Assembly (NCBI GenBank): GCA_024695605.1
Contig: JAILHW010000151.1
Coordinates: 1 to 54,840, forward strand
Source of the DNA: Lachnospiraceae bacterium
Lineage (GTDB): Bacteria; Bacillota; Clostridia; Lachnospirales; Lachnospiraceae
Direction of reading: 5' to 3'
Length of the DNA stretch: 54,840 bases
Notes under the pieces: model-generated
What the model was told of the DNA's origin: nothing
Database searches by the model: none
What the model saw: the letters and a program-made list of their open reading frames with translations, nothing else
Translations under genes and position numbers: made by a program
In this document: positions 10,511 through 53,735 of the stretch, piece by piece
Numbering within the stretch: position 1 is the stretch's first letter
How the letters are laid out: each line of letters starts with the position of its first letter

Positions 10511-11050
10511 TTATTTTGCAAACGGCATATTGAAAAGGCGCAAAAGCTCTCTTGCTTCCTCATCTGTCTTAGCCGTTGTTACGATAGCTACATCCATACC
10601 TCTGACCTTGTCCACCTTATCGTATTCAATCTCAGGGAAGATGATCTGTTCCTTGATACCAAGGGAGTAGTTGCCCCTGCCGTCAAATGCGTTGGGGTTC
10701 ACGCCTCTGAAGTCTCTTACACGGGGAAGTGCAAGGTTTACAAGACGATCTAAAAACTCATACATCTTCTCACCACGAAGGGTGGTACGGCATCCGATAG
10801 ACTGACCTTCACGGATCTTGAAGTTTGCTACGGAATTCTTTGCCTTGGTGATAACCGCCTTCTGGCCTGCGATGGTCTCCATATCGGACATTGCGTTCTC
10901 TAAGATCTTAGCGTTGTCCTTTGCCTCGCCGACACCCATGTTCAACACGATCTTGTTGATCTTGGGTACTTCCATACGGTTCTTATAACCAAACTTTTTG
11001 ATCATGGCATCCACGATCTCGTTTTCATACGTATCTCTTAATCTGCTCAA
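10511..11050 (-). CDS. rplE: 50S ribosomal protein L5
   Basis: 179 aa; recognised by sequence and by position between rplX and rpsN. Confidence 0.97.
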
Positions 11051-11070
11051 AGTCCCTTCCTCCTTTCTGC

Positions 11071-11391
11071 TTAATCGATCACATCGCCGGTTGACTTTGC
11101 ATAGCGGACCTTCTTGTCGCCCTCAGTCTTCACACCGACTCTGGTGGGTTGTCCCTTGTGAAGATACATCACGTTAGAAAGGGAAATGGGTGCTTCTTTT
11201 TCAATGATACCGCCGTTAGCGTTAGTTGCGTTGGGCTTGGTGTGTCTCTGAACCTTGTTCACGCCCTCTACTACAACCTTGCCGTTCTTGTGATCAACAG
11301 AGAGGACCTTGCCCTCTTTGCCCTTGCACTTGATGGCATCGCCGGCAATAACTCTGACTGTGTCGCCTTTTTTAATCTTTGCAATCGCCAT
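11071..11391 (-). CDS. rplX: 50S ribosomal protein L24
   Basis: 106 aa with a KOW motif ([12 protein letters not shown]). Confidence 0.96.
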
Positions 11392-11403
11392 TTTTCGAAC
11401 CTC

Positions 11404-11772
11404 CTATAATACTTCCGGAGCCAGGGAAACGATCTTCATGAACTGCTTCTCTCTGAGCTCTCTTGCTACCGGTCCAAAAATACGGGTTCCGCGGGGTGTC
11501 TTGTCATCCTTGATGATGACTGCCGCATTCTCATCAAATTTGATGTAGGAACCGTCTTTGCGGTGAGCGCCTTTAACTGTTCTGACTACAACTGCTTTCA
11601 CAACATCGCCTTTTTTAACAACTCCGCCGGGTGTTGCATCTTTAACGGTAGCTACGATAATGTCACCGATGTTTGCATATCTTCTGGTGGATCCGCCCAT
11701 TACACGGATGCAGAGGATCTCTTTCGCGCCGGTGTTATCAGCAACCTTGAGTCTGCTTTCCTGCTGAATCAT
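11404..11772 (-). CDS. rplN: 50S ribosomal protein L14
   Basis: Begins [18 protein letters not shown]; 122 aa. Confidence 0.98.
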
Positions 11773-11804
11773 GCTAATTCTCCTTCCGTCTATTATCCAA
11801 AGGC

Positions 11805-12062
11805 TTATTTAACCTTCTCAACGATCTCAACCAGTCTCCATCTCTTGTCCTTGGACAGGGGTCTGGTCTCCATCACTTTAACAGTGTCACCAATGCTGCA
11901 CTCGTTTTTCTCGTCATGCGCCTTTAATTTGTAGGTCCGCTTTACGATCTTCTTGTAAAGAGGGTGCTTTACATGGTTCTCAACTGCAACCACGATGGTT
12001 TTATCCATTTTATTGCTCACTACCTTACCGGTACGAGTTTTTCTCAAATTTCTCTCTTCCAC
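11805..12062 (-). CDS. rpsQ: 30S ribosomal protein S17
   Basis: 85 aa with [17 protein letters not shown]. Confidence 0.96.
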
Positions 12063-12087
12063 GATGATTTCTCCTTCCTACAAATTC

Positions 12088-12291
12088 TTAAGCGCGAGCC
12101 TTCTGTGTGATCACCGTCTGGATACGGGCGATGTTCTTGCGAACCTCTTTGATCCTGCTGGTGTTATCAAGCTGATTGGTTGCATTCTGGAATCTTAAGT
12201 TGAAAAGCTCTTTCTTGGCGCTTACCAGCTCTTCGGAAAGCTCAGAAACTGATTTAGCTTTCAAATCTTCTACGTAAGTTGCACTTTTCAT
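12088..12291 (-). CDS. rpmC: 50S ribosomal protein L29
   Basis: 67 aa with ELFNLRFQ. It overlaps the rplP stop by 4 nt. Confidence 0.95.
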
Positions 12292-12719
12292 TCAGCGAGC
12301 CCTCCTTCCAAATCTGCTTTTGCAACGATCTTGCACTTGCAAGGCAGCTTGTGAGATGCCAGACGAAGTGCTTCTCTTGCGGTATCCTCAGGAACACCTG
12401 CGATTTCAAACATTACACGTCCGGGCTTCACTACTGCTACCCAATACTCCAAAGCTCCTTTACCGGAACCCATACGGGTCTCAGCCGGCTTGTTGGTAAC
12501 GGGCTTGTCCGGGAAGATCTTGATCCAAACCTGACCGCCACGTTTTACATGTCTTGTCATAGCGACACGGGCTGCCTCGATCTGATTGGAACGGATCCAG
12601 CAGGGCTCAACCGCTACGATACCAAATTCTCCGTAAGTAATCTGATTACCTCTCTGCGCCTTACCTTTCATGGTTCCGCGGAACTGTTTACGGCGCTTAA
12701 CTCTTTTCGGCATTAACAT
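12288..12719 (-). CDS. rplP: 50S ribosomal protein L16
   Basis: Begins [15 protein letters not shown]; 143 aa. Confidence 0.97.
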
Positions 12720-13378
12720 TATTTATCGCTCCCTTCCTTGTTGCCCTTGGTGGGAAGGATTTCGCCCTTGTAGATCCAAACCTTTACGCCTACCTTACCG
12801 TAGGTGGTGTCTGCCTCAGCGAATCCATAGTCAATATCTGCTCTGAGTGTCTGAAGGGGAATCGTTCCCTCGCTGTAAAACTCGGTTCTTGCCATATCCG
12901 CACCACCGAGACGACCGGAAACGGAAGTCTTGATACCCTGTGCGGAAGCCTTCATGGCGCGTCCCATGCAGGATTTCATAGCGCGGCGGAAGGATACACG
13001 GTTCTCAAGCTGCTGTGCGATGTTCTCTGCTACCAGCTGTGCATCTCTGTCCGGACGCTTGATCTCTTTGATGTCAACCAGTGCTTTTCTGCCTGTCATC
13101 TTCTCAAGCTCAGCCTTGGTCTTCTCGATCTCAGCGCCGCCCTTACCGATTACAACACCGGGCTTAGCGGTGTAGATCACTACTTTAACCTTATCAGCTG
13201 CTCCACGCTCGATCTCAACCTTGGAGATGCCTGCGCTTCCCAGTTTCTTCTTTACGTACTCGCGAATCTTGTGATCCTCTTCAAGGAACTGTGCGAACTC
13301 ACCCTCTGCATACCAACGGGAGTCCCAATCCTTGATGATGCCGACGCGGAGTCCGTGAGGATTAACTTTCTGTCCCAT
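12719..13378 (-). CDS. rpsC: 30S ribosomal protein S3
   Basis: Begins [24 protein letters not shown]; 219 aa. Confidence 0.98.
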
Positions 13379-13389
13379 TTTTCTTCCTC

Positions 13390-13776
13390 CTATCTTTCGT
13401 CCAGAACAACAGTAATGTGGCTCATTCTTTTCAGAATCCGATATGCTCTACCCTGTGCTCTGGCGCGAATTCTCTTCATCGTCGGTCCTTCGTTTGCGTA
13501 GCATTCAGCAACGTAGAGGTTTTCCTTCTTCATACCGTTGTTGTTCTCTGCATTCGCTACTGCTGACTGAAGAAGCTTCTTGATTACACCTGAAGCATAA
13601 CGAGGGTTATACTCAAGTACAGCGAGTGCTGTTTCTACATCCTTGCCTCTGATGGCGTCCAATACGAAGCAAGCTTTCTGAACAGGAATACGCGCATAAG
13701 AGAGCTTTGCGCTCGGGCGGGTATCCTTGTTTGCATTTCTTTCACGTTTGATCTGTGATCTATGTCCCTTTGCCAT
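13390..13776 (-). CDS. rplV: 50S ribosomal protein L22
   Basis: 128 aa; recognised by sequence and by position between rpsS and rpsC. Confidence 0.95.
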
Positions 13777-13794
13777 AGGTTTTACCCTCCTTCC

Positions 13795-14076
13795 TTATCT
13801 TACTTTGCCTTTCTTCTCATCCTTGCCATGTCCGCGATAGGTTCTGGTTGCTACAAACTCGCCGAGCTTGTGTCCTACCATATCCTCGGTTACATAGACA
13901 GGAACGTGTTTCCGTCCATCGTGTACCGCAATCGTGTGTCCTACAAATGAGGGGAAGATCGTGGAACGACGGGACCATGTCTTGATTACCGCTTTCTGTC
14001 CGGAAGCGTTCATTGCGTCAACCTTTTTCAAAAGACTTGCGTCTGCAAAAGGTCCTTTTTTTAATGATCTGGCCAT
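13795..14076 (-). CDS. rpsS: 30S ribosomal protein S19
   Basis: Begins [10 protein letters not shown] and contains GHKLGEF; 93 aa. Confidence 0.97.
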
Positions 14077-14093
14077 TTTCTTTCCTCCCTTAC

Positions 14094-14939
14094 TTATTTG
14101 ATGGCTCTGCCGTCACGGCGTCTTACGATCAGCTTATTGGAAGCTTTCTTTTTCCTACGTGTCTTCAGGCCCAGTGCGGGCTTGCCCCAAGGGGTGCTCG
14201 GGCCGGGACGTCCGATGGGTGCGCGTCCCTCACCACCGCCGTGCGGATGGTCATTCGGGTTCATAACGGAACCTCTTACGGTCGGGCGGATACCCATGTG
14301 ACGCTTACGTCCTGCTTTACCGATCTTTACCAGGTTGTGGTCGCCGTTTCCGACTACACCGATGGAAGCGCGGCAATTCAGGGGAACCATTCTCATTTCT
14401 CCGGAAGGAAGACGCAGGGTTGCGTATTTGCCTTCTTTTGCCATCAGCTGTGCGCTGTTACCGGCAGCTCTTACCATCTGGCCGCCCTTGCCCGGCTGAA
14501 GCTCAATGTTGTGAAGAAGAGTACCTACAGGGATCTCGGAGATCGGCAGGCAGTTACCTACTCTGACTTCGGCCTGTGCACCGCTCATTACGGTCATGCC
14601 GTCTGTCAGACCCTGGGGAGCCAGGATGTAAGCCTTCTCGCCGTCCTGATAGCAGATCAGTGCGATGTTGGCACTGCGGTTCGGATCGTACTCGATACCG
14701 ATTACCTTAGCGGGGATCCCGTCTTTGGTATTTCTTCTGAAATCTACCATTCTGTATTTCTTCTTTGCGCCGCCGCCGTGATGACGAACGGTGATCTTAC
14801 CCTGATTATTACGGCCGGAATGTTTCGGCACTGCTACGACCAGAGACTTTTCCGGTTCGCTCTTGGTGATCTCAGCGAAATCAGAACCGGTCATGTTTCT
14901 TCTGGAGGGGGTATATGGGTTGTAACTCTTAATTCCCAT
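14094..14939 (-). CDS. rplB: 50S ribosomal protein L2
   Basis: 281 aa with the [11 protein letters not shown] motif. Confidence 0.98.
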
Positions 14940-14998
14940 TTTGTATTTCTCCTTTCAAATGATTTGCTCTCGTGCTTTACTGCACATAGTTTTCGTTA

Positions 14999-15298
14999 TC
15001 AAAGACCTGCGAAGATCTCAATCTCGTTGCTCTCTTCGGTCAGCTGAACGATCGCCTTTTTGGTCTTTGCTGTCTGGCCGATGGTCATACCGCGGCGTTT
15101 CTTCTTGCCGTCCTGGTTGATGGTATTGACCTTCGCCACCTTAACACCGTCAAACATCTTCTCAACCGCTTCCTTGATCTGCGATTTGTTTGCTTCGGGA
15201 TGCACGAAAAATGTGTACTTCTTCTCGCTCATGCCATCCATGCTCTTCTCGGTGATGACCGGCTTTAAAATCACATCATAATACTGTAATGCTGCCAT
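14999..15298 (-). CDS. rplW: 50S ribosomal protein L23
   Basis: 99 aa with [10 protein letters not shown]. Confidence 0.96.
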
Positions 15299-15918
15299 TA
15301 TGCGTACACCTCCTCGATCTTCGCAGCGGAATCCTTCGTCAGGACGATGGTACCGCCGTTCATAATGTCATAAACATTGATCTGTCCAACCAATGTGGTG
15401 TTAACCTTTGCCATGTTTCTTGCGGAAAGAACGGTGTTCTGATCGTTGTCTGCCAGAACTACGAGGCCCTTCTCAACCTTCAGGTTGTTCATAACCTGTG
15501 CAAAGCTCTTGGTCTTGATCTCATCGAACTTCAGCTCATCTACTACGATCAGCTTGTTCTCCTGAACCCTGCTGGTCAGCGCGCTCTTCAAAGCCGCTCT
15601 CTTTTCCTTCTTGTTCAGCTTGAAGCTGTAATCTCTGGGTGTGGGAGCGAATACTACACCGCCGCCCTTCCACTGGGGAGATCTGTTGGAACCCTGACGG
15701 GCATGTCCGGTTCCTTTCTGTCTCCAGGGCTTTCTTCCGCCGCCGGAAACCTCAGCGCGGGTCTTTGCTTTCTGGGTGCCCTGGCGATTTGCTGCAAGCT
15801 GCTGCAAAACTGCCATATGTACAAGGTGTTCGTTGATCTCTACGCCGAAGATGGCATCATTTAAATCGATCGTTCCGACTTCCTTGCCTTCCATATTAAA
15901 TACGGATACGTTTGCCAT
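15298..15918 (-). CDS. rplD: 50S ribosomal protein L4
   Basis: 206 aa with [19 protein letters not shown]. Confidence 0.97.
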
Positions 15919-15940
15919 GATCTGTTCCTCCTTTCACCGA

Positions 15941-16624
15941 TTAAATATCCACTCTTGTGGTCTCTTTGATGGTTACCAGAGACTTCTTCGGTCCGGGAAC
16001 GGAACCCTTTACCAGCAGGAGATTCTTCTCCGCATCTACTCTGACTACCTCAAGATTTTGAACAGTAACCTTTACAGATCCCATATGACCGGGCATTCCT
16101 TTTCCCTTGAATACTCTGGAAGGGGAGGAGCATGCACCGTTGGAACCCTGATGACGGTGGAACTTGGAACCGTGCTTCATAGGTCCTCTGTGCTGACCGA
16201 GTCTCTTGATCGCACCCTGGAACCCTTTACCCTTGGAGATTGCGGTTGCATCTACATGATCGCCTTGCTCGAAGATGTCTGCCTTGATCTCCTGTGCCAG
16301 CTGATACTCGGAAGCGTTCTCGAACTTGAACTCACGAAGATATCTCTTGGTGGATACTCCGGCTTTGTCGAAATGTCCCTTCAGCGGCTTGTTTACGCCA
16401 TGTCTGTGAGCGATCTCTTTCTTACCGCCCTTATCCTTGGTGATGACCTTCTCTTTCTTATCCTCGTAACCAACCTGGATTGCATCATAGCCATCGTTCT
16501 CAGCGGTCTTGATCTGTGTTACCACACAGGGGCCTGCTGTCAGGACCGTTACAGGGATCAGACTTCCGTCTTCCTGAAAGATCTGGGTCATGCCGACCTT
16601 AGTTGCCAAAATTGCCTTTTTCAT
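15941..16624 (-). CDS. rplC: 50S ribosomal protein L3
   Basis: 227 aa with KVGMTQIF and [10 protein letters not shown]. Confidence 0.97.
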
Positions 16625-16679
16625 TTTTTACCTCCTTCATGCATCGGAACGGGACAAGCCGTTCATACATTACTATTAG

Positions 16680-16994
16680 TTACTTCATCTTTATGCCAAT
16701 GTAAACACCGGCAGGCATCTCTAATCTCTGAAGGGCATCTACCGTCTTCTGAGTGGGTGCCATCACGTCGATGAGCCTTTTGTGCGTTCTCTGCTCAAAC
16801 TGCTCACGGGAATCTTTGTACTTATGAACGGCACGAAGGATGGTCACTACTTCCTTTTTGGTAGGAAGGGGGATCGGACCCGATACCTGGGAACCATTCT
16901 TCTTTACTGTCTCGATGATCTTCTTTGCAGAGCTATCGATCAGCTGATGGTCATAAGCCTTCAATGTGATTCTCATTACTTGTTGATTTGCCAT
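16680..16994 (-). CDS. rpsJ: 30S ribosomal protein S10
   Basis: [16 protein letters not shown]... is 104 aa and has a GGAGG SD 8 nt upstream. The 187-aa ORF-track form adds 83 non-S10 codons. Confidence 0.95.
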
Positions 16995-17241
16995 AAAAAA
17001 AGCCGCCTCCTTTTCGCACTTTTTAGTTTCAAGTACGACAAGTGGTGACTGTACACTCTCCCGTGTGTGTCCTAAAAACTCACACGTCGTTTCTGCTCGC
17101 AGCAGACAGTTCGCTTTCGCTGATTCGTACAGTAACTTGTCGTCAGTTTCTTCCTGACATTCGCTCCACGGAAAACCCGAAAAGGCTTTCGCCAGTCCGG
17201 CAACCTCTCGCTTCATAGCTATCAATGTCACAGCACTTGCC

Positions 17242-17270
17242 ATTCTACTCTATCGGAATGGGAAATGCAA
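17242..17270 (-). promoter_or_regulatory. Putative sigma-A promoter of the S10 operon (TTGCAT-17 nt-TAGAAT)
   Basis: Minus-strand -35 at 17270-17265 and -10 at 17247-17242. It would produce a leader of about 240 nt before rpsJ. Confidence 0.5.
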
Positions 17271-29504: not shown

Positions 29505-32500
29505 ATGAAAGAATACAAGTTCCTGGAAATTGAAAACCTGCAACTCCCCGAAAGCAGACGTGTACAAAGAAGCCGAATGCGTAGCATCCTGGATGCAATC
29601 GCATGCATGGTTTCGGAGTACGCCGTAGGCTGTCTTGGATTTGATGCTTCGGATGAAACATTATATCCCTTCATCCGCAAATACTTCATGGGTGAATGCG
29701 AAACCAAGGAACTTCTCAAGCGTCTTATTTCCAACTTTGAGATCGAGGAAATGTTCTCTTTTCTCCCGGGACTTGAGATTTCCTTCGATGATCCCTGCTG
29801 GAAGGATGCCCTGGAAAAAATCACGGTTCGTTCAGACGCTGAAAACACCTTTTCTATGGGTGAAAAACAGTTCTCCTGCAAAAAACTCTTTTTCCATATT
29901 GCGGTATTTGAAGGCAAGCCTCGAGCTCAACGTTATTTCGCAGAGCCCGGCACCGATGAGCCCGTGTTTGCAGATCTTGAAGATGACAGTATCACCACGG
30001 TGATCAACCGACCTTATCGATTCACTGATCTTTCCGTCTCCCCAAAAGAGGATGAAACCTTTCAGATCGAGGATGAAGCCTTTTTTGACATTGAAGAGAT
30101 CAAATCCTCCGATGAGGACCAGAGAAAAGCGATCCGTGCTTCTGTTGAACATAATCTCGTTGTTTTGGCCGGCGCAGGAAGCGGCAAAACCAGAACCCTG
30201 GTTTCCCGTCTTGCATACCTTCACCTGGTCAGAGGCATTCCTTTGTCAAAGATCGTGCTTCTGACTTTTACGACCTCCGCAGCTGAAGAGATGCGCCAGC
30301 GCGCAGAGCATCTGATTGCACAGATCTATCAGCTTAAGGGTGTTCAGCGCCAGCCCTATGTATATGCCAAAACCTTTGACGCCTTTTTCCGCAGGATTCT
30401 GCTTGACTATTTCGGCGAAATCGGATTCACCACACAGCCTGTTTTGGATCTTACAGCAAGCCGGGATAAAAAATGTTCTCTGCTAAAGGATGTCATTGAA
30501 GAATATCAGCTCCAAAGAGTTTTTTCCAATTACAGAACTGACGCTCAGGGCCTTGACACCCTGCTCACTCAGCTGGAGGCTTATGCAAGCGGCCTCACTG
30601 TTAACCAGCCGGGTCTTAATCGGCTTTTGGAACTGTTTCTAGATAAGCAGGTCAGCAAAAATCAAGTGCTGGGCTTTCAATATGTGAATCTTCTGGTCAA
30701 ACGGTCCCTCTATCAGGAGGACTCTCCCTTAAAGGCTGCACTGCTGATCCGCTATAACTGTTTTCTCATAGACGAGTTCCAGGACATCAGCAGTCTCCAA
30801 AACGAAACCATGCGTCCATTTTACAACACAAGTACGCATTTTACCTTCGTGGGAGATGACGATCAGTCTATTTATGCCTGGCGAGGCGCAGATGTTTCCA
30901 TCATCCGGGACATCGTCAATCAGGAAAACACCGATACGCAATATCTCCTGATCAACTACCGAAACAATCCGAACATCGTAAAGGCCGGAAACTGCATTTT
31001 ACGTCTGATCTCAAACCGAGCAAAGCATAAGGAGATCATTCCCTATAAGACCTCCGGCGCAAAGATCTGTGTCTCCACCAACGATCCGAAGTTTGTCAAT
31101 GTTGTTGATGAGATTGACAGACTGATCAAAAGCGGCATCGATCCAAAAGAGATCTCTGTACTTGCACGCAAAAGCAGGCAGGCAAAAGGAATCGAGGATG
31201 CTCTGCGGTCCATCGGCATTCCGGTAATCTCTAAAAAAGAGCCTCCAAAGCTGGATAGTTATTATTATCTCTTAAAAACTATGATCAACATCCATAGCGA
31301 ATATGATCTATATCATTCCTGCCAGTTGATCATGCGCTTTGCAAAGGAATCGGACTTTCCGGAAAAAACCATCAAGAAAATCATCAAAGGGGAGGAGCCT
31401 GCAAAAGGTAACCTCAATGTTTTGCAAAACATTGCAATGGATGCTTTTCGCCCCGGTGCTGACCAACTCTCTGTGATCGTCGAACGATTCGCGCAAAAAG
31501 CCGGAGAAGAATTCGCAGGATTGCCAAACGGCCGTATCGAGAGTGATGCCATTGATGCATTCATTGACTTTTTGAAAGACGGCGAGCTCCCCTGGCCCAT
31601 TACTCAAAAACGACTGGCCTCTGCCTATGCTGCTTTTGAGAATGTCAGAGACTTTAAAAATATGACCCGGAAAACAGAAAACGGCGTCAGTGTGAATACG
31701 ATCCATCAGGCCAAGGGACTCGAATACAATATTGTCATGATCGTAGGATTGGATCAGGGAGAATACCCGGATATCGGTATCATAGACAATGAATACAATA
31801 AAAAGATCCAGGAGCTGGAAAGCCTAAAGGCTGCCAGAGCAGAGTATTTTGAACTGAAAAAGACCATCACGGATGAGCAGATACAAACCCTTCTTAAGGA
31901 CTGCAATCATCCCTCCCTTTCGCCGGAAGAAACGGAAAGCCTTTCTCCTCTCAGATCAGTGATCGAAAAGAATCTGCGGGGATTGAAAAACCTGTCTGCA
32001 AATGCCATCGAGGATTATCTCGACGAATTTGACAACTGCATTGCTCCACTGGACAGGCGGTACCGCTTCGATCAGTCAAAGCTTACGCGGAAAATACTGG
32101 AACTGGAATCGCTTTTGGCTCAGAGAAATGAAGAGATTAAACTTTTAGATGAGGAAGAAACCGTAGCAGCTGAGGAAATGAAGTCAGAGATCCTACAGCT
32201 TGGCGAACAAATAAAGGAGGCTAAAACAACCCTCACCACCTTGCAACATCAGCATTCCCTGTTCAGATCATCCATCAGGAATCTGCAGAGTTTCCATACA
32301 AACGCATTTATTGCCGGAGGGCTTTTAACAGATATGAGCCGTGCGGAAGAGATTGGTGCCATCAAAAAACAACTGGAACAGGAACGAAAAGTAAAAATTG
32401 AAGAAGAACGGCGTACCTTCTACGTAGCTGTTACAAGGGCCCGGGATCAGCTTTATTTGTTCACCGATGAAGGCGCAACCGAATCCGAATTTGTTAAGGA

Positions 32501-33266
32501 AATCTCCGATGATCTGAAGACGGAGTTCCTTGTTATGACTAAAAATGCAAGAGCCGAACTCGAACGCATGGCAGGTGGACTCCGCAAAGAATTTGAAAAA
32601 GAGACCATCGATGATGACAGCATCGATGGCAAGATTCACAGTATCATAGACGATTCACAGTTTAAAGTAACCATCGATGAGCGTTTCAACGAATACCTGA
32701 AACAACATCCTGAATACGCTTCACTTCCGGCACCGGCGATGCGGTATTTCAAGCAGGGAATGAACCTTCTTTTTGTTGGTGAAATGACCGGAATGCTCTT
32801 TGTTACGGAATTTTCCCATAATATGCAGAGGGCCGCGGAACAGATCTTAAAAAGTGCGGCCGGAAAAAACGCCATCCCTTTTGAAACAAAAGATCGCCAG
32901 ATGCAAAAACTGATCATCGATAAGATCCGGAAGGAAACCCGGTCTCTGAATGCACAGACACCATCGCGGCACTTTATTGAAGAGATCATCTCCTCAGAAG
33001 CCGAAGGTTCTCGGATGGATTCTTTGAAAAAAGCAGCAATTCAGCATTATATCGTGCGTTCTCATCTATTCAAGGTCAAGAAGGAAATCTATCCAACCTG
33101 GGCCTGCCAGCGAATTAACATTCAGCCGAAACAGTTTTTAAAGGCGGCACTGGATCTGTCCAATATGCGAAATGTGCTGGTGCACCAAAATGAAGATTCC
33201 TGGCCGGAGGATCCCATAACGGAAATGCTTTTAGACCTTCGTACCATTGCCGAGGCCGGCTTTTGA
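29505..33266 (+). CDS. UvrD/Rep-family SF1 helicase with an unknown N-terminal domain, a coiled-coil insertion and a HEPN-like C-terminal region
   Basis: Helicase motifs are LAGAGSGKTRTL (Walker A), LIDEFQDIS, VGDDDQSIYAWRGA, NYRNNPNIV, TIHQAKGLEYNIV and YVAVTRARDQLYLF. The C-terminal MRNVLVHQ fits Rx4-6H. Confidence 0.85.
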   Translation: MKEYKFLEIENLQLPESRRVQRSRMRSILDAIACMVSEYAVGCLGFDASDETLYPFIRKYFMGECETKELLKRLISNFEIEEMFSFLPGLEISFDDPCWKDALEKITVRSDAENTFSMGEKQFSCKKLFFHIAVFEGKPRAQRYFAEPGTDEPVFADLEDDSITTVINRPYRFTDLSVSPKEDETFQIEDEAFFDIEEIKSSDEDQRKAIRASVEHNLVVLAGAGSGKTRTLVSRLAYLHLVRGIPLSKIVLLTFTTSAAEEMRQRAEHLIAQIYQLKGVQRQPYVYAKTFDAFFRRILLDYFGEIGFTTQPVLDLTASRDKKCSLLKDVIEEYQLQRVFSNYRTDAQGLDTLLTQLEAYASGLTVNQPGLNRLLELFLDKQVSKNQVLGFQYVNLLVKRSLYQEDSPLKAALLIRYNCFLIDEFQDISSLQNETMRPFYNTSTHFTFVGDDDQSIYAWRGADVSIIRDIVNQENTDTQYLLINYRNNPNIVKAGNCILRLISNRAKHKEIIPYKTSGAKICVSTNDPKFVNVVDEIDRLIKSGIDPKEISVLARKSRQAKGIEDALRSIGIPVISKKEPPKLDSYYYLLKTMINIHSEYDLYHSCQLIMRFAKESDFPEKTIKKIIKGEEPAKGNLNVLQNIAMDAFRPGADQLSVIVERFAQKAGEEFAGLPNGRIESDAIDAFIDFLKDGELPWPITQKRLASAYAAFENVRDFKNMTRKTENGVSVNTIHQAKGLEYNIVMIVGLDQGEYPDIGIIDNEYNKKIQELESLKAARAEYFELKKTITDEQIQTLLKDCNHPSLSPEETESLSPLRSVIEKNLRGLKNLSANAIEDYLDEFDNCIAPLDRRYRFDQSKLTRKILELESLLAQRNEEIKLLDEEETVAAEEMKSEILQLGEQIKEAKTTLTTLQHQHSLFRSSIRNLQSFHTNAFIAGGLLTDMSRAEEIGAIKKQLEQERKVKIEEERRTFYVAVTRARDQLYLFTDEGATESEFVKEISDDLKTEFLVMTKNARAELERMAGGLRKEFEKETIDDDSIDGKIHSIIDDSQFKVTIDERFNEYLKQHPEYASLPAPAMRYFKQGMNLLFVGEMTGMLFVTEFSHNMQRAAEQILKSAAGKNAIPFETKDRQMQKLIIDKIRKETRSLNAQTPSRHFIEEIISSEAEGSRMDSLKKAAIQHYIVRSHLFKVKKEIYPTWACQRINIQPKQFLKAALDLSNMRNVLVHQNEDSWPEDPITEMLLDLRTIAEAGF

Positions 33267-40689: not shown

Positions 40690-40809
40690 GCATAATTTGT
40701 ATCGGTTTATATAAAAAAGAGCCCCGGTATCCTACCTTTTTTGGACTTTTTTCAAAAATATGCTATTATCACCCTATGATTATTTACATGAAAGAGAGGC
40801 TTGAATGAT

Positions 40810-41625
40810 ATGTTCTGTAGAAAAATGCGGCTTTTGTTTTTATTGGCACTTCTTGTTTTACTGCCTTCTGAAAAACTGAAGGCTGAGGTGCCTACTCCCT
40901 ATTTTGGAGAATACCAGTACTGCGATGAAAAATATTCCACAAGCTTCATCGATCTTCACATCTGCATAGAGGATTCCAATACGGCAGATGGGATCGAAAT
41001 ATACAGAAAGCAGGGGAAAGGTGCTTTTCAGCTGATCACCACGATCCCAGTTAAGCAGGGCGAGGAAAGCTACAGCTACAGGGACAAAAATGTCCGATAT
41101 GCAAAAACTTATACCTACAAGCTTCGTTGTTTCAAAACGCTGAACGGTCAAAAGAGCTTTTCCGATTTTTCCTCACCCTTTGACAGAACCGCGGCAAACA
41201 GATGGGCAAAATACAAAATCCGTAAGATCAATTACTCCCCGGAGGGGATCACGGTTTCCCTGAAGAATATGAAAAACAATGGAAAACTGGTAATAGACAA
41301 AAAGGGCCTGTCCGATATCACCTTTGAATCCGGAAGTGGAGAGGGAATCACCCTTGTGGAACTGGGCCTTAAGGCCTATTCCTATGACGGCGTGCATTGG
41401 AAAAACCTTGGTAAAAAATGTACCCTGAAAGCCAAGGATTCCAAGGCATTGTACCTTCGCTTCGTCCCCATCGATGAGGACTATGATCTGCCGGCTGCCC
41501 TTCCGTCGGATGCCACCATCATGATGAACCATGTAGAGTACAACAGTCTCTGGTATACCTGGATGAAGCTGAATCTGTCCGCCAAAAGGGCACATACCGG
41601 TTTGGATCTTGAATACTATCACTAA
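40810..41625 (+). CDS. Secreted protein of unknown function
   Basis: Signal peptide MRLLFLLALLVLLPSEKLKAE. An AGAGAGG SD lies 11 nt before the ATG at 40810. The ORF track starts at a TTG at 40801. Confidence 0.65.
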   Translation: MFCRKMRLLFLLALLVLLPSEKLKAEVPTPYFGEYQYCDEKYSTSFIDLHICIEDSNTADGIEIYRKQGKGAFQLITTIPVKQGEESYSYRDKNVRYAKTYTYKLRCFKTLNGQKSFSDFSSPFDRTAANRWAKYKIRKINYSPEGITVSLKNMKNNGKLVIDKKGLSDITFESGSGEGITLVELGLKAYSYDGVHWKNLGKKCTLKAKDSKALYLRFVPIDEDYDLPAALPSDATIMMNHVEYNSLWYTWMKLNLSAKRAHTGLDLEYYH

Positions 41626-41816: not shown

Positions 41817-41837
41817 TAGTTTCTCCTAATAAAGTAA

Positions 41838-41867
41838 GTGAGGAGTGCGGGAATCCACACTCCTCAC
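41838..41867. terminator. Perfect 10-bp stem hairpin (GTGAGGAGTG-N10-CACTCCTCAC) with T-rich flanks on both strands
   Basis: Read directly; possibly a bidirectional terminator. Confidence 0.45.
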
Positions 41868-42030
41868 TGCATTTTCTTAAATGAGAGTTTTCTGCTGGTT
41901 GTCAGCCGCGATACCCAATTAGAACATCTTAAGCGATGGAAGTTTACCCTGCTCCACCTGCAGCACAACTTTTTACGTTAACTTCCTGAAATAGTTCCAC
42001 TAAAACCTATGATCCACATTCTGGCGAGCA

Positions 42031-42489
42031 TCATTTGCTCGTTTTTCTTTTCCGGCCACGATGTCTTGCCGGCTTTGGCTTTTCTTCCTCCACCTTTGTA
42101 TCCGAATCAAGCAACTCCGGAATCTTATGCTCATCCAGCACCTTCTGAATGATAAGATATGCGCCGATCCGAAGGCAGCTGCTCCTATTCGAATTGAACT
42201 TCTCTTCCGGTAACTCAACTTCGGGAAAATACGTCAGGAAGTTCTGGTTCGGTACCATCATCTTCGCATTCTCTTTTGATAGTTTTCCGATGGTCACCCT
42301 TTCAGGGATCGTATATTGCCTGTCCTTATAATACTTTCTCCCGATCTCATAGTTGACGTATATCGCATTTCCTTTTTGCTTGGTAGTGATTTTGCCCTTT
42401 ACATTCGGTACTTCGATGAGAAAATCCAGGTACATTCGTACCTCCTTATGATACACAAGATTTAGTGGTACTTCCTGCGGGAAGTTCAC
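42031..42489 (-). pseudogene. Possible truncated transposase N-terminal fragment (IS4/IS1634-like), uncertain
   Basis: 152-aa ORF. The KGKITTKQKGNAIYVNYEIGRKYYKDRQYTIPERVTIGKL and SCLRIGAYLIIQKVLDEHKIPELL pattern resembles IS transposase N-termini. The ORF ends in a basic out-of-context tail and has no catalytic domain. Confidence 0.3.
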
Positions 42490-42627: not shown

Positions 42628-43503
42628 CTATCCCACATCGCTGTACATGGTGGGTTCATTTTTATAGTATACCGTATTCAGCACAGGAATCCGTCGTTTC
42701 TTTCGATACAGCTCCTTAAGACTTCCGTCTTCTGCAACCTCACTTACGATAACGGTCACATCCACAAACTCTACTCTTTCTCCCTCCGGTGTGCTTTGAG
42801 GCTCTGTGGAAAAAAGCAGCCCGATCTTCTGGTTCTGATACAGCTGCTTCGGAAGCCTTTCCGTCGCATGCCATACCACATCCTTTCCGATGATGTCGGC
42901 ATATACGGACGATGCCGCATCGCTGCCTGGAACGATCCTGTTCAGAAACAGTCCCTTGTAGGGGTCCCTGGTTTCCGAAAAGCGACTGTAATAGCACATG
43001 GTCAGATATCCCGGCTCCAGGTCTGCCTGATAAGAGGGTATGGACGGATCCGCGGTGGGCACCGCTCTTTTCCCGTCCTCATCGATCAGGATGTCATCGC
43101 AGCCATCGGCGTCTATCCGGACCGCAGTTGCCGTATCGTTGATATTGGAGGTCAGAAATTCTATCCCGCTTCCCTCATAGACGGCTCCGTTTTTGGAAAC
43201 AGACGCCTGACCGTTTCGGATGCGAAGATACCCTCCCTTTCCCTCCTGCGTGCTGCCCTGCATGGTGCGGATCTCTTTTTTCAGCTCCGCCAGAACAATG
43301 TCCGCTACCGAATAGGTGGTAGTCCTTCTTTCCTGCTCGTAAAAGAAGGTGACCGCATGCGAAATACACATGGTCGATACGGACAGAAAGATCGCAAGCA
43401 AAGCAAAGGTAACGATCAGCTCTACCATGGTCGTACCCCTTTTGCATCTGCAAATATCCGCGATTTTATGGTTGGTTTTCCTTAGCATACTTTGTGGACT
43501 CAT
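42628..43503 (-). CDS. Type IV pilin-like protein (prepilin N-terminal cleavage/methylation motif), minor pilin candidate
   Basis: CKRG-TTMVELIVTFALLAIFLSV has Gly at -1, Glu at +5 and a hydrophobic helix. The start overlaps the upstream stop by 4 nt. Confidence 0.8.
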   Translation of the reverse strand: MSPQSMLRKTNHKIADICRCKRGTTMVELIVTFALLAIFLSVSTMCISHAVTFFYEQERRTTTYSVADIVLAELKKEIRTMQGSTQEGKGGYLRIRNGQASVSKNGAVYEGSGIEFLTSNINDTATAVRIDADGCDDILIDEDGKRAVPTADPSIPSYQADLEPGYLTMCYYSRFSETRDPYKGLFLNRIVPGSDAASSVYADIIGKDVVWHATERLPKQLYQNQKIGLLFSTEPQSTPEGERVEFVDVTVIVSEVAEDGSLKELYRKKRRIPVLNTVYYKNEPTMYSDVG

Positions 43504-43985
43504 TTTTTCGTTGAAAACAGATACAGCTTTCTGACCTGTCCCTGTGTTTCATCGTCTGTGGGCGTGTAGGTGCCGTTCGTGTTGCGGAACATAAGGCAGG
43601 CTGTTGAAACCTGCACCGGGATCTCGGTGCCCTCCGGATCCTTAAAGGTATAGCTGATGGTGCCCTCTTTCGTAAGCTCATAGGGCTCATCTCCGGTAAG
43701 CGCAGTCTGCACGGCCTTTTCAAAGGATTCCTGTCCGCGGTCAAGATCTATGGCCTCCTTTACCATATTGGAGGAAAACTTTATACTGCCGTACAGGATG
43801 ACCATGACGAGTATGAGCATCACAAAAGCGACCGTTACCTCAACCATGGTCATACCGTCCCTGCCCCTAAGGAGCAGTTTCCCTTTCCGGTAAGGTATCA
43901 TCATCCGTTTGATATACTTAGTCAGATTCATATGCTTTGTCCGTTTCATCATTTTTTTCATCCATGTGCCGCTTTTTCGAATCAC
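43500..43985 (-). CDS. Type IV pilin-like protein, minor pilin candidate (true start may be an internal Met)
   Basis: GRDG-MTMVEVTVAFVMLILVMVIL motif. The ORF as drawn has an unusually long basic leader. Confidence 0.75.
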   Translation of the reverse strand: MIRKSGTWMKKMMKRTKHMNLTKYIKRMMIPYRKGKLLLRGRDGMTMVEVTVAFVMLILVMVILYGSIKFSSNMVKEAIDLDRGQESFEKAVQTALTGDEPYELTKEGTISYTFKDPEGTEIPVQVSTACLMFRNTNGTYTPTDDETQGQVRKLYLFSTKK

Positions 43986-44530
43986 GGCTGTGCGGCTGTC
44001 GGAGGCTGATAATACCCCCGAAACTTGTACTTTAAGGCTGAGGGCGATCCTGAAATCTCATATTTACAGCTGCAGGAGGCGACCGGCGTGGATTCATCAT
44101 CCGCACTTATGGTCACGACAAGGCTGCCGGCAGATGCGCCCTTATCAAGAACTATGTCAAGCCCTGCATACGCTCCGCCCGAAGCGGGAGGCGGTGCCAC
44201 AAGCTCAATCTTTTGAGGCGCGCCCTCGCTTTCATCGGCTATAAAGCTGTTGATATAGGTAACCAAAGGGGATGTTACCCCCGTATTCGAATACTCCTCT
44301 ATTTCCTTTTGCAGGATCGCGGAAAAGGAAAGCACCTGCCTGTAATACATTTCATCCCTGCCCTCATCCGCCACAGTTGCCAGCATCTGATAGGTGGAAA
44401 CCAGTATCGTCAGGGACAGGATCATCACAACTGCCATGACACAGACCACAACGATCATGGCCGCTCCGCTCTCCCGCATTTTCCCCTTTTTTTGACAAGT
44501 TTTCCCTTTGCCTGCTTTGCACATCTTCAT
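43982..44530 (-). CDS. PilX/ComGG-like pseudopilin (hydrophobic N-terminal helix without Glu5)
   Basis: RESGAAMIVVVCVMAVVMILSLTILVSTYQML. It lies directly after the giant pilin gene. Confidence 0.6.
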   Translation of the reverse strand: MKMCKAGKGKTCQKKGKMRESGAAMIVVVCVMAVVMILSLTILVSTYQMLATVADEGRDEMYYRQVLSFSAILQKEIEEYSNTGVTSPLVTYINSFIADESEGAPQKIELVAPPPASGGAYAGLDIVLDKGASAGSLVVTISADDESTPVASCSCKYEISGSPSALKYKFRGYYQPPTAAQP

Positions 44531-44531
44531 A

Positions 44532-47500
44532 TCAGGGTTCTCCCGTATTGATCAGAGCATCTGCCCAAACACTGTTTTTATTCGTATAGTCACTGCTTCT
44601 GTTCAGAGCAGCTGCGTAATAATACTTCATTCCCTCGGCTGTCATAAGACGGATGATACCCTCCTCTCTGCTCTTGCCCTGAGCCACCTCTGCAGTAACC
44701 GGCAGCCAGAATCGCAGATGATCCTCATAATTGCTGGTATCAAGATTTGTCTCAGCTATCCAGGCAGCTACATGGAATTCCCTGTACTGCGTCAGATCAA
44801 TGCCAAGCTGCTCCACATTGATATCCAGAGAGATATCTTTTGTTTTGCTATTAGTCGTCTGGAATGAATACTCATCCTGCAGATTGAGACAGAAGCTGAC
44901 GGGATAGCCGTCTGAGGCATCATCTCTTGGATATGCATACACCTCTACCATAGGATACACCGGAACCACCTGTCCCTTACCGGAGCCGTGGTAGCCTATC
45001 TGTCCGCTAAAGCTTATGGTATTTCCGGAAACGGTTGCCTCTGTCTGGGTGATATTGTCAATATTTACCCTGAAATCTCCGTCATGGAAATTCTGCCAGA
45101 GCCAGATAGAATTCTCCGTCAATGTGCAGATCTCCGAATCCGGCAGAAGCTCGGATACAGCCTGCGCCGTGACAGGTTTTACATCTCTATTTCCATCTCT
45201 GTTGACGGCAACGGCATACGGCATCACCTGATCTGCCAGCGAGGTATCATTCGTGTCTATTTCAAAGCTACTGCTTCCGACTTTGAGCTTTATGATAGCA
45301 TCGGTTCCCACATAGGCCTCGGGATTTTTCAGCCGCACATACCACTTCGGACTACTACTCATCTGCAGGCAGATATATTCAATCTTAGGTGTCGCAAGCT
45401 GCTCTCTGACCTTAAGAAGTATGGGCTTACTGTAATAGGAATCGCCCCAAAGCTTATGATCCTTCACTCTGGCAACAACATAGTATTCATAGTTGACAAA
45501 ATCAAATCTGACTCCGTCCGGTTCTCTGGCAATATAGTTATGCCCGGTAACCTCATGTATTTCCGTCTGTCTTTCCACATCACACATCTGTATGGAATCC
45601 ACCGTGTAGCTGACCGCATTCCCCGAAACGGTTCCGTCAGGCAGCACTGTGCTTTCCGGTTTTGGAGCCTTGTAATAGATCGTTTCCACATCAAAGCGCT
45701 CAGGCGTGCTTCCGTCGGGACCGGTCCACTCCGCCTGTGTCAGATCCTGTGTCTTAACGACACTGCCGTCTGCAAGTGTCTGCTCATATTCCGGATGATA
45801 GACGGAAAGTGTGTCCGCAAAGGTATCCTGATCCGATCTGGCCAGAACATAGTCCTTCAGATTGTTGCTTACAGTGTCCCAATAATGCGGATCCTGTAAG
45901 GGAGCGACAAAGTAATATTTGTCTTTCCCTGCTCCGTCCTGCATATCATCAGCGTCTCCGACCACATGGATATAACCGTTTTTGCGGGTAAAGCTTCCTC
46001 CTTCCATCCGCGAAAGGGCAGTCTCTTCATCCAACTCATAGTAATGCGCGATCATCATATCGCTGTACTCCGCATACTGTGCCCTGTAGCCCGAATACCA
46101 GGCACTGATCCTGAGGCTGGATATATCATATCCGCTAAGATCCAGATCGGGTATGCTGATATCTGCTGTGTGCATAAGATTCGCGTTACCGTCGTTTACC
46201 AGCTCAAGATCATCACTTAAATACAGGGTCTTTTCGGTTCCGTCTGTATCCTTTGCGCTGACCTCGATCCTGTAATAATGCTGCAGCCAGCCTGTTCTGC
46301 TGCCGTCAGCAATGGCTATGGAGTCACCCTTTGTGGTATAACGCAGCCGGCCGCTGAAATGAAGCACGCGATCCTCATCTATATAGCATCCGTTTTCCCG
46401 GGCCGCAAAGCTTTGCAGATTGATCTTGACCTTCCCATTACCGCTATAGTTCTCAGGCAAATACAGCTTTCCCTTTTCGCCATCCTTCTTCGGTGTAACG
46501 ATCACCACTCCCGAAGGACTGTAATCGGTACCGTAAGCCTTGGCCAAAATGCCGTTGCCAAGATCAGCGCCGCGCCGGTTGTAATATGCTTTTCCGTCCA
46601 AAACGGAGGTATCTACTTCGATATTGTCATTCGTATTTCCCTGCGGCTTGTTATTGAAGTACAGACCGATCTTAACCCCTGTTGTATCCTCATAATCCTC
46701 CATATTAAGGAGTCTGAAGCTGTAGGTCGGGGTGTCTCGGTTTAAGGCCGCCACTTCCAGGATCGGCGCAGGAAGTACCGATCTGTGATACAGATAAAGC
46801 GGTGCCTGACTGCTCTGGGCAGAGTCATTGTCCAGTGTGCCCACAGCTGTCCTGTCCGTAATGTACCCGGACACTCTCTTTTTGCCGGCTGCCTGCGCCT
46901 TATCCACCTCGAAGTAATAATTGACAGGACCCTGGCCGGTGGAGGCATGCCAGCATTCCACCTTGAAGTCCCCGTAATCCGACAGTGCAATATCGGAGGG
47001 AACATCATAGTAACCGATATTGATCGTTTCCGACTGTCCGGCACTTAAGGAATACTCTCTTTCCGCAACGGTTTCCCAATGCCCCTTTCTTTTTGCATCG
47101 CTGCCGACATACCTGCCGTACAGCTCCAGTCTGAATACCTGGGGCTTTCGATCCTCCGTGGCTTTGTAGGTAAGGATAGCACTGTACTCCGGTCTTAAGG
47201 GTTGATCCAGCCCGTTGTCAGCCTCCGAAATGTTCATTTCGGCTCCGCCGGGCTCCAGATTCGATGGGATATAAACAGTTGTCGCAAACTCATCCGCAGC
47301 CAGAATATCCTTTTTCTCCTCCGGATCGTCTCCCTCTGATCCGGATACAGGCTCTGCAAAGCCGTAAACCTCTTTGTCACAGACATTCCTGGGGATATTG
47401 CCGGTGTAGTAAGAAAGCTTCTCCTCAGAATAATCCCGGTCAAAGTCGATCAGATAACGGGTATTGTTGTTTGCAAAGCGCACCCCTACCTCAAAGTCAT

Positions 47501-53735: not shown

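Follow-up and report, generated by a model that had tools for sequence, protein, structure and literature searches.

The question raised by this locus is whether an open reading frame of more than three thousand codons can genuinely encode a type IV pilin and, if so, where its product would be displayed and what it might bind. The frame lies at positions 44532-53735 (minus strand) of a 54,840-nt metagenomic contig from a Lachnospiraceae bacterium, the whole of which is referred to here as the window. An initial interpretation made from the letters of the DNA, the sequence-only reading, had described its product as a modular pilin or pilus-displayed adhesin.

The frame is uninterrupted and comprises 3,067 codons counted from a GTG. 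This GTG sits within a GGGAG Shine-Dalgarno-like motif, and an ATG is found 9 nt downstream at 53726. Translation is likely to start at this ATG, giving a protein of 3,064 aa with an N-terminus of MKRFWKGLKNRICKADG followed, past the predicted cleavage site, by FTLIEMVVVLTVMSIMMAATVWGV. Of the 3067-aa frame described in the sequence-only reading, the reality of the open frame therefore stands and the length likely becomes 3,064 aa. Its size estimate was about 330 kDa, and the masses computed here are 338 kDa for the precursor and 336 kDa after predicted cleavage.

A mis-assembled or fused frame, or a gene in decay whose expression has ceased, could in principle give a similar picture. The source is a metagenomic contig, the operon is near the contig end, and an unrelated 152-aa ORF stands downstream where the usual machinery would be encoded. 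However, an open frame of 3,067 codons at 49 % G+C cannot be attributed to chance, no direct DNA repeats of at least 25 nt that might cause mis-assembly were found within the giant gene, and its junctions and ribosome-binding site are intact. Uninterrupted orthologous ORFs of 2,776-3,584 aa are present in 24 Lachnospiraceae genomes, including that of a cultured isolate, Lachnospiraceae bacterium NC2004. In addition, more than 20 orthologues (33-46 % identity) align co-linearly with the gene along 90-99 % of its length, without frameshift or stop. On the basis of the missing repeats and the intact full-length orthologues, an artefact or pseudogene was rejected as highly improbable.

The N-terminus carries the features expected of a prepilin. 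The leader, MKRFWKGLKNRICKADG (aa 1-17; 53676-53726, minus strand), contains five basic residues among its 17 and ends in Gly at -1. The region scores 26.2 bits against Pfam N_methyl (PF07963; curated cut-off 21.2) and 23.3 bits against the NCBIfam model TIGR02532 (curated cut-off 16.3). Across 21 full-length orthologues, G-1 (G17), F+1 (F18), T+2 (T19), L+3 (L20), E+5 (E22) and M+6 (M23) are invariant, and the motif G/[FY]T..E, in which the slash marks the cleavage site, occurs in essentially all of the 173 family members examined. As judged by these scores and alignments, the class III (prepilin) signal is genuine, and the Phe+1, Glu+5 and hydrophobic alpha1-N helix noted at the outset are borne out. 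The only hydrophobic segment of the entire protein is aa 17-43. LPxT-like strings are internal only, and no LPXTG followed by a C-terminal hydrophobic segment or membrane anchor is present, in contrast to sortase-anchored Gram-positive adhesins, which have both at the C-terminus, together with a basic tail. The passenger thus has no other membrane or cell-wall anchor.

Predicted structure places a pilin module directly after the signal (aa 18-214; 53085-53675, minus strand), combining F+1, E+5, the hydrophobic alpha1-N, the alpha1 helix and a beta-sheet head. In an AF2 model of aa 1-1200 (pLDDT 83.7, pTM 0.74), a 54-residue alpha1 helix (aa 20-73) is followed by six or seven strands up to aa 213 (89-91, 114-119, 155-161, 166-173, 178-181, 191-194 and 210-213), at a pLDDT of about 80-88. 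This arrangement is consistent with a pilin fold, and the module is the most conserved part of the protein. Foldseek of the 1,200-aa N-terminal model against the PDB returned no match at E <= 1e-3, probably because the query is multi-domain. A profile built from the full-length alignment matched PDB sequences only in the pilin alpha1-N and not in the pilin head.

Behind this module of about 200 residues and a flexible linker, the models predict a passenger of about 2,850 residues, so that the AlphaFold models accord with the modular pilin first proposed. The segment at aa 215-500 (52227-53084, minus strand) is predicted from AF2 DSSP and pLDDT to contain a low-confidence linker (215-224), a seven-stranded beta-sandwich (230-354) and a mixed connector. 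It leads into a long right-handed parallel beta-helix (aa ~501-1720; 48567-52226, minus strand) with degenerate GLUG-like repeats of the GGIxGxN / NCxNxG type. Regular short strands with pLDDT above 90 are modelled over aa 500-1200; from aa 1200 to 1720 the helix is inferred from the repeats. Internal repeats span aa 825-1650, about 13 GGIxG-like copies are visible at aa 833-1543, and invariant Gly/Asn/Cys columns extend to about aa 1665 in the orthologue alignment. Self-BLASTP detected no repeats at E <= 1e-3, and the divergent internal repeats were visible only by a tile-wise Smith-Waterman scan. When the giant protein and two distant relatives were compared with Pfam and NCBIfam, only the N-methyl motif and GLUG (PF07581) were found. 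GLUG scored 18.4 bits in the giant protein, below the gathering score of 20.5, and 20.5 bits against the same threshold in the relative P0033.

The passenger could be chiefly enzymatic instead of adhesive. Its beta-helix would then degrade polymers of the plant cell wall, capsule or mucin from its place on the pilus, acting as a lyase or depolymerase of polysaccharides or as a protease of the GLUG type. This possibility bears on what the passenger does and would agree with any of the locations considered for the protein. Foldseek against BFVD gave proteins named right-handed beta-helix, pectin lyase, pectate-lyase superfamily, capsule depolymerase and 'putative IgA1 protease' (E 1e-7 to 1e-3). 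These matches support the beta-helix fold; their TM-scores are low, and they reflect a generic solenoid. The helix is conserved as strongly as the pilin module, yet its invariant residues are almost all Gly, Asn and Cys, as in structural ladders rather than a catalytic site, and no catalytic domain was found by Pfam or NCBIfam. The rumen or gut habitat of the Lachnospiraceae would suit such an activity. Raynaud et al. list six pilins in InterPro that combine the N-methyl motif with GLUG (IPR012902-IPR011493; Dataset S1 of PMC8179133), which they read as possible peptidases. Overall, we regard a mainly enzymatic role as unlikely.

The remainder of the passenger is less conserved. A poorly conserved connector (aa ~1721-1902; 48021-48566, minus strand), with many gaps and low pLDDT where modelled, precedes a predicted string of about ten beta-sandwich domains resembling FN3, Ig and macroglobulin folds (aa ~1903-3064; 44535-48020, minus strand). 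AF2 models this string as all-beta with only moderate confidence (pLDDT 67.5). Foldseek against the PDB matched it to titin and thick-filament proteins, the leptin-receptor FN3 domains and the MG strings of alpha2-macroglobulin and complement (E 1e-12 to 1e-9). Two pairs of tiles are similar to each other, 1950-2100 to 2700-2850 and 2175-2325 to 2925-3064, and this similarity points to an ancient internal duplication in the string. Conservation falls from a high level at the N-terminus to a low level at the C-terminus, with aa ~1903-3064 being the most variable, and the distal domains evolve fastest.

The genetic organization provides a second line of evidence. The giant gene is the second of five co-directional genes on the minus strand, with junctions of +51, +1, -4 and -4 nt, the third being -4 only if gene 4 starts at its GTG; the pilin operon originally described was therefore recovered. 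Upstream, a consensus scan gave a candidate sigma-70-type promoter (TTGAAA-17-TACTAT with extended TG; 54279-54307, minus strand) about 45 nt before the first pilin gene. The preceding unit has a terminator-like hairpin at 54565-54586, and no riboswitch or other Rfam family was found upstream of the operon. Gene 1 (53778-54233, minus strand) encodes a 151-aa type IV pilin or pseudopilin (...MKNAG/FTLVELVV) that exceeds the cut-offs of both N_methyl (35.1 bits) and TIGR02532 (29 bits). In a related locus (L003), the giant gene is likewise preceded by a pilin gene, to which gene 1 is 47 % identical.

The genes that follow encode smaller pilin-like proteins. Gene 3 (182 aa; 43982-44530, minus strand) begins 1 nt past the giant stop codon. 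Its product (...RESG/AAMIVVVCV) has no Glu+5, and when it is aligned with five orthologues the sequence G/AAMIVVV without Glu5 is seen in all six. Gene 3 gave no Pfam or NCBIfam match and no PDB sequence relative; by analogy, it is a candidate for a capping subunit of the GspK/PilX/ComGG kind. Gene 4 (43500-43985, minus strand) specifies a small minor pilin (...RGRDG/MTMVEVTV) with weak N-terminal matches to N_methyl and XpsI (GspI). Its true start is probably an internal ATG near 43901, since orthologues are about 125 aa long. Gene 5 (42628-43503, minus strand), the ATG of which overlaps the gene 4 stop by 4 nt, encodes a 291-aa minor pilin (...CKRG/TTMVELIV) with a weak N_methyl match. Profiles of genes 3-5 found no useful relatives in the PDB, and searches for H/I/J/K family membership of the minor pilins gave only N-terminal-helix matches far below cut-off (GspH, ComGD, XpsI). 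K-, I- and J-like roles for genes 3-5 are hence suggested by size and Glu5 status only. Downstream of the operon, the 152-aa ORF at 42031-42489 differs from the conserved gene of about 153 aa in related loci and has no Pfam match; our guess is that it is a transposase fragment.

Together with genes 3-5, the giant gene forms a conserved block of four minor-pilin genes, one of which lacks Glu5. This module (giant, Glu5-less gene, ~125-aa pilin and ~290-aa pilin) is kept in every related locus for which downstream sequence is available. In 13 related loci it is followed by PilD-PilC-PilMN-PilO-PilB, and in one further locus the machinery adjoins the module on its other side, making 14 in total. 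Most related loci encode a full T4P set and a separate putative major pilin. By contrast, no prepilin peptidase, assembly ATPase or platform gene is present anywhere on the 54.8-kb contig, and tblastn with the PilD, PilC, PilMN, PilO and PilB of relatives revealed no remnants in the window. The assembly genes are not beside the operon and would have to lie elsewhere in the genome, and the coupling of the giant protein to a pilus in the source organism is assumed. Three or four related genomes likewise have no assembly genes within 10 kb (L002/L022, L028 and L030).

This uncoupling would also fit a pilin-like anchor in cells that make no long pilus. In that case the adhesin might only be tethered, through its class III signal and pilin module, to the membrane or a short pseudopilus spanning the wall, and would form a cell-surface fibre. 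T2SS pseudopili are a parallel, as is the archaeal 'bindosome', in which surface-located binding proteins bear class III signals. By its length alone, the passenger could project from the cell. Beside the clusters of close relatives no retraction ATPase was seen, the 'PilT' matches there falling inside PilB, and a separate PilT is found only in a distant locus (L004). In NCBI, relatives carry the name 'type II secretion system (GspH family) protein', but this naming derives from the N-terminal motif only. The full T4P set and separate putative major pilin of most related loci are harder to reconcile with a simple anchor, as is the conserved partnership with three minor pilins, one without Glu5, which is the hallmark of complexes for priming or at the tip. 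We consider an anchor of this type improbable, though not negligibly so.

The best explanation, to which we assign a probability of about 0.6, is that the product of the ORF is a giant modular minor pilin of the type IV class, which a minor-pilin complex at the pilus tip would display. It is best read as an extreme variant of the known modular pilin design, and the modular pilin or pilus-displayed adhesin of the sequence-only reading is thus supported in silico by the signal, the conserved full-length ORF, the predicted structure and the minor-pilin context. Minor pilins of characterized systems form a tip-located complex capped by a Glu5-less subunit, and filaments grow from tip to base (PMC10191384); modular pilins have been proposed to be tip-exposed (PMC8179133). 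By this route, the precursor would be inserted into the membrane via its alpha1-N helix, the passenger would be exported by Sec, and the prepilin peptidase PilD would cleave after Gly17. The pilin module would then join the three downstream gene products, and possibly the upstream 151-aa pilin, in an assembly-priming minor-pilin complex, the Glu5-less member of which is likened to the capping subunit of known tip complexes. This complex would end at the distal pilus tip, so that a single pilus would bear only one such protein, or very few of them, as a rod measuring tens of nanometres. Since the host belongs to the monoderm Clostridia, there would be no outer-membrane secretin to limit the size of the tip cargo. 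The variable C-terminal domains may bind a gut or rumen ligand, such as plant-cell-wall or mucus glycans, or other cells.

A subunit of low abundance scattered along the shaft, with its passenger hanging by a flexible linker, would instead yield a multivalent fibre resembling a bottle-brush. The low-confidence linker at aa 215-224, between pilin module and passenger, would permit this arrangement, and the giant protein keeps the Glu5 that shaft subunits need. In characterized tip complexes, however, only the capping subunit lacks Glu5, and this residue therefore does not separate tip from shaft. The giant gene is embedded among core-type minor pilins rather than standing alone, and 336-kDa side chains on many subunits would presumably be costly and crowd the filament. 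The genomic context favours display by a tip complex over polymerisation along the shaft, and we judge the scattered arrangement distinctly unlikely.

Several known systems resemble a giant modular pilin at the tip. In the PilY1/PilC system, a large modular adhesin likewise sits on a tip complex of four minor pilins of type IVa pili and T2SS (PilHIJK; FimU-PilVWX, GspHIJK), one of them Glu5-less and all encoded by clustered genes, and its proposed function in priming and adhesion is analogous. PilY1 is a non-pilin with a C-terminal beta-propeller (IPR008707), whereas the giant adhesin is itself covalently a pilin and has no such Pfam match. ComZ of Thermus thermophilus and CofB/TcpB of type IVb pili are about 500-550 aa long, and the ComZ solenoid is inserted within the pilin fold. 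The modules of the giant protein, in contrast, follow the pilin module in series. ComZ (beta-solenoid) and CofB/TcpB (pilin, beta-repeat and beta-sandwich in a tip trimer) are, like the giant protein, pilins with such extra domains, and they are tip-associated and involved in assembly initiation and ligand binding (PMC8179133, PMC10191384). The giant protein has no sequence similarity to solved structures such as these beyond alpha1-N.

The closest design is that of Streptococcus sanguinis PilB (vWA) and PilC (lectin), which also combine a class III signal with a pilin module of about 180-200 residues, a short linker and one or more non-pilin modules (PMC8179133, PMC9934059). They likewise belong to a monoderm host, are encoded with other minor pilins and have been proposed to act in tip-exposed adhesion (PMC8179133). 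As the sequence-only reading had remarked, such streptococcal proteins are far smaller: PilB is 461 aa with one grafted domain (PMC8179133), compared with 3,064 aa here, where a beta-sandwich is accompanied by a beta-helix of some 1,200 aa and about ten more domains. Unlike PilB and PilC, the giant protein has no vWA or lectin signature. The most extreme multi-domain case cited in an InterPro survey of pilins has 860 residues (PMC8179133). GLUG-repeat and pectin-lyase-fold surface proteins (PF07581) share the degenerate GGIxG-type repeats and predicted right-handed beta-helix, with the giant protein falling below their Pfam gathering score. The four-gene Verru_Chthon cassette of Verrucomicrobia encodes a large protein A with pilin-like proteins B-D. 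Its combination of a large protein with a few prepilin-motif proteins (TIGR02596/TIGR02599) recalls the present operon, in which N-termini weakly match proteins C and D, but these matches are far below cut-off, cover the N-terminal helix only and concern another phylum, and amount to a resemblance only.

At least 280 sequence clusters, most of them 2-4.2 kaa in length, make up the family that is defined by the first 480 aa of the protein. By this shared region, the giant protein is not unique, as the family includes hundreds of putative pilins of 2-4 kaa. No description of such proteins emerged when the literature was searched for giant or large pilins. A preprint on giant genes of Omnitrophota reports some that adjoin T2SS-like loci and does not describe them as pilins. 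We tentatively suggest, as a possibility rather than an expectation, that a 'mega-pilin' class (at least 280 clusters, 2-4.2 kaa) exists in Lachnospiraceae of the gut and rumen and in relatives including Blautia. Its members would have the tip adhesin built covalently into the minor-pilin priming complex, in place of PilY1, and type IV machinery would launch a rigid beta-helix and Ig-like rod of tens of nanometres that is possibly catalytic (depolymerase-like).

If true, this would set a new upper limit for type IV filament cargo and would need a way to thread a 336-kDa passenger through the Gram-positive wall. Characterized modular pilins are about 450-550 aa, with a cited extreme of 860, and a family of 2-4 kaa stretches the concept 4-8-fold. 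Such sizes pose questions about passenger export, peptidoglycan passage and the effect on pilus dynamics. The family is centred on Lachnospiraceae of the rumen and gut and reaches a cultured human-gut Blautia species; attachment to plant fibre, mucus or partner cells in gut ecosystems may therefore depend in large part on these unannotated proteins. As cultured carriers exist, these questions are directly addressable. Blautia marasmi contributes a 3,975-aa RefSeq protein to the wider family.

The giant gene occupies 44532-53735 on the minus strand, where a GTG opens an uninterrupted frame of 3,067 codons, as the sequence-only reading had described. This GTG sits within a GGGAG ribosome-binding-like motif, and an ATG at 53726, 9 nt 3' of it, is the more plausible start. 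Translated from the ATG, the protein has 3,064 aa (pI 4.8) and a precursor mass of 338 kDa, or 336 kDa after loss of 17 residues. The N-terminus is MKRFWKGLKNRICKADG|FTLIEMVVVLTVMSIMMAATVWGV (the bar marks the predicted prepilin cleavage site). It scores 26.2 bits against Pfam N_methyl (curated cut-off 21.2) and 23.3 against NCBIfam TIGR02532 (curated cut-off 16.3), which bears out the class III prepilin signal proposed earlier. Residues 17-43 are the sole hydrophobic stretch of the whole protein. By sequence it fits the definition of a type IV pilin. An LPXTG adhesin is ruled out, as the protein has no LPXTG-type C-terminal anchor.

Repeat-driven mis-assembly is unlikely because the giant gene contains no direct DNA repeats of at least 25 nt. 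A protein search returned 32 relatives of 2,464-3,910 aa; the N-methyl motif is present in the precomputed annotation of 31, and the remaining one has G|FTLVE at its N-terminus too. Closer relatives share 33-43 % identity across 76-99 % of the query, and G17, F18, T19, L20, E22 and M23 are invariant in 21 aligned full-length members. A survey of related genomes for giant prepilin-motif proteins, suggested with the initial reading, was performed with one genome per species and found 24 loci, with an open ORF of 2,776-3,584 aa at every locus with enough sequence. The hosts are rumen and gut Lachnospiraceae/Clostridia represented by MAGs, except for the cultured isolate Lachnospiraceae bacterium NC2004, in which an ORF of 3,461 aa is followed by the same small genes. 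That the ORF is an artefact or a pseudogene is essentially excluded.

The giant protein is no one-off: it belongs to a large uncharacterised family. Searched exhaustively with HMMER, aa 1-480 recovered 801 cluster representatives at E <= 1e-3, including 280 at E <= 1e-10. Among 173 family proteins examined, 117 have at least 2,000 aa and 80 at least 3,000 aa, with a maximum of 4,208 aa; G|[FY]T..E occurs in essentially every complete N-terminus. One cluster includes RefSeq WP_302417747.1 of Blautia marasmi (3,975 aa), annotated only as 'prepilin-type N-terminal cleavage/methylation domain-containing protein'.

Domain annotation by AlphaFold, also suggested at the outset, was run on aa 1-1200 and on the C-terminal 1,200 aa, and predicts a pilin module, a linker, a beta-sandwich, a beta-helix and an FN3/Ig-like string. 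The AlphaFold2 model of aa 1-1200, built on a 30-sequence alignment, is confident (pLDDT 83.7, pTM 0.74). It predicts a leader without order, a helix of 54 residues (aa 20-73), a head of helix plus strands as far as aa 213, a low-confidence linker (aa 215-224) and a seven-stranded beta-sandwich (aa 230-354). From about aa 500, short strands follow in regular succession with pLDDT >90. Degenerate GGIxGxN / NCxNxG repeats, which can be seen between aa 833 and about 1545, make up this beta-helix; the repeats resemble one another over aa 825-1650, and their invariant Gly/Asn/Cys columns reach about aa 1665. The Pfam GLUG score is slightly under threshold. We infer that the beta-helix extends from about aa 500 to about 1720, on the basis of the model as far as aa 1200 and of the repeats thereafter.

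Foldseek comparison of the multi-domain aa 1-1200 model with the PDB gave nothing informative; in BFVD the same query hit proteins of the right-handed beta-helix type at E 1e-7 to 1e-3, named as pectin/pectate lyase, 'IgA1 protease', right-handed beta-helix and capsule depolymerase. The beta-helix could accordingly be read as a depolymerase or protease, which fits any location of the protein, though we regard this as improbable. The model of the C-terminal 1,200 aa is of moderate quality (pLDDT 67.5), all beta, with about ten domains. It matches strings of FN3/Ig/macroglobulin domains (E 1e-12 to 1e-9), named as titin-containing thick filament, leptin receptor and alpha2-macroglobulin/complement. 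An ancient duplication relates aa 1950-2100 to 2700-2850 and 2175-2325 to 2925-3064. The pilin module and the beta-helix are the best-conserved parts and the C-terminal third is the least conserved, as would be expected of a protein that docks into conserved machinery by its N-terminus and adapts to ligands at its distal end.

The giant gene is indeed the second of five co-directional pilin-type genes with tight junctions (+51, +1, -4 and -4 nt; the true start of gene 4 is uncertain). Gene 1 (53778-54233, minus strand) encodes a 151-aa pilin with G|FTLVE, and a promoter-like site lies about 45 nt 5' of it. After the giant gene, also on the minus strand, come gene 3 (43982-44530; 182 aa, N-terminus G|AAMIVVV, without the Glu at position 5 of the mature pilin, Glu5), gene 4 (43500-43985; a small pilin with G|MTMVE) and gene 5 (42628-43503; a 291-aa pilin with G|TTMVE). 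Homology did not place genes 3-5 in the H, I, J or K minor-pilin families. In every orthologous locus, the giant gene precedes the same set of three, which encode a Glu5-less protein and two pilins of about 125 and about 290 aa. About 2 kb is inserted between the giant gene and gene 3 in one related locus (L021, 19504-21443), and a gene for a 369-aa DUF1016/YhcG nuclease-like protein lies between gene 5 and the second pilin in L006/L007; these insertions suggest that the pilus cluster is an insertion hotspot.

At 13 loci, the three small genes are followed by a second pilin, a gene of about 153 aa, PilD (Peptidase_A24), PilC (T2SSF), a PilMN-like protein of about 490 aa, a T2SSM-like protein of about 281 aa and PilB (MshEN+T2SSE). 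A distant branch carries the machinery divergently upstream, with a separate PilT. Two distinct pilin genes flank the minor-pilin block in the related loci L003, L006, L012, L015 and L020: an orthologue of gene 1 of the window (47 % identity) upstream of the giant gene, and another pilin gene right before PilD. Either of them may be the major pilin. The window has the upstream type only. No type IV machinery is encoded anywhere in the window, and none occurs within 10 kb downstream of the block there or in three or four other genomes. A surface fibre anchored in the membrane or in a pseudopilus, without a long pilus, is possible but unlikely. Upstream of the operon the contig stops after 600 nt, and the machinery may therefore lie past that end or elsewhere in the genome. 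Its place in related genomes, that of the putative major pilin and PilD-PilB genes, is taken in the window by an unrelated 152-aa ORF (42031-42489, minus strand) with a basic tail and no Pfam match, downstream of gene 5. The ORF is followed by a strong terminator-like hairpin whose stem has 14 bp (41837-41868, minus strand). It may mark the scar of a rearrangement or mobile element that parted the minor-pilin operon from its machinery. Converging on the region of the pilin operon is a 274-aa ORF (40801-41625, plus strand) that has a signal-peptide-like N-terminus and matches nothing in Pfam or NCBIfam.

Core minor pilins form an assembly-priming complex capped by a subunit without Glu5; since filaments grow from the tip towards the base, this complex keeps its place at the tip (PMC10191384). 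Modular pilins enter filaments by way of their pilin module and probably lie exposed at the tip (PMC8179133). The conserved four-gene block with its Glu5-less member fits this scheme, which leads us to propose that the giant protein belongs to the tip complex as a modular minor pilin. Following presumed Sec export and PilD cleavage, it would be incorporated at the pilus tip in one or few copies per pilus, projecting a rigid beta-helix with a beaded chain of Ig-like domains, and would mediate adhesion as its variable far end binds a gut or rumen ligand. Clostridia lack an outer membrane and secretin, which removes one size limit on such cargo. Scattering of the giant pilin along the pilus shaft is distinctly improbable. 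Signal, conservation, predicted architecture and synteny are established, and as far as sequence analysis reaches they support the initial reading of a modular pilin or pilus-displayed adhesin.

By predicted architecture, the protein fits the definition of a modular pilin. It is an extreme form of modular minor pilin, new in size and known in principle. In design it comes closest, among characterised proteins, to S. sanguinis PilB and PilC, ComZ and CofB/TcpB; in function its nearest analogue is PilY1 on the PilHIJK complex. It is not itself a PilY1, as it has no propeller and is a pilin. Six IPR012902-GLUG proteins are listed in an InterPro survey of modular pilins, which cites a protein of 860 residues as its extreme multi-domain case (PMC8179133). 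Our literature search found no description of pilins in the 2-4 kaa range; an Omnitrophota giant-gene preprint reports T2SS-like loci adjoining giant genes, the products of which are not termed pilins. Giant pilins should interest specialists in type IV pili and the gut microbiome due to their size, their abundance as a family in gut Lachnospiraceae, and the questions they raise about export, wall passage and ligands, which are testable as cultured carriers exist.

Other features were observed in the window. An S10-Clostridia leader (Rfam RF03136, 71.8 bits; 17137-17224, minus strand) precedes the S10/L3 ribosomal protein operon (about 1-17243, minus strand), confirming the Clostridia origin of the contig. 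A 56-aa ORF (26511-26681, plus strand) with a Cys/Ser/Thr-rich tail ending ...TDYNTGVCSDMPECGC lies directly upstream of a LanM-type gene (26700-29450, plus strand; 916 aa, DUF4135 + LANC_like); the two are a candidate class II lanthipeptide precursor and synthetase. Right after them, a 1,253-aa UvrD/REP-family helicase (29505-33266, plus strand) has long non-helicase N- and C-terminal extensions. A 732-aa membrane protein with an HD_5/HD (HD-GYP-like) domain (22940-25138, minus strand) adjoins a 590-aa LytR_cpsA_psr protein (21147-22919). Proteins of the HD-GYP type can break down c-di-GMP, a regulator of type IV pili in some Clostridia.
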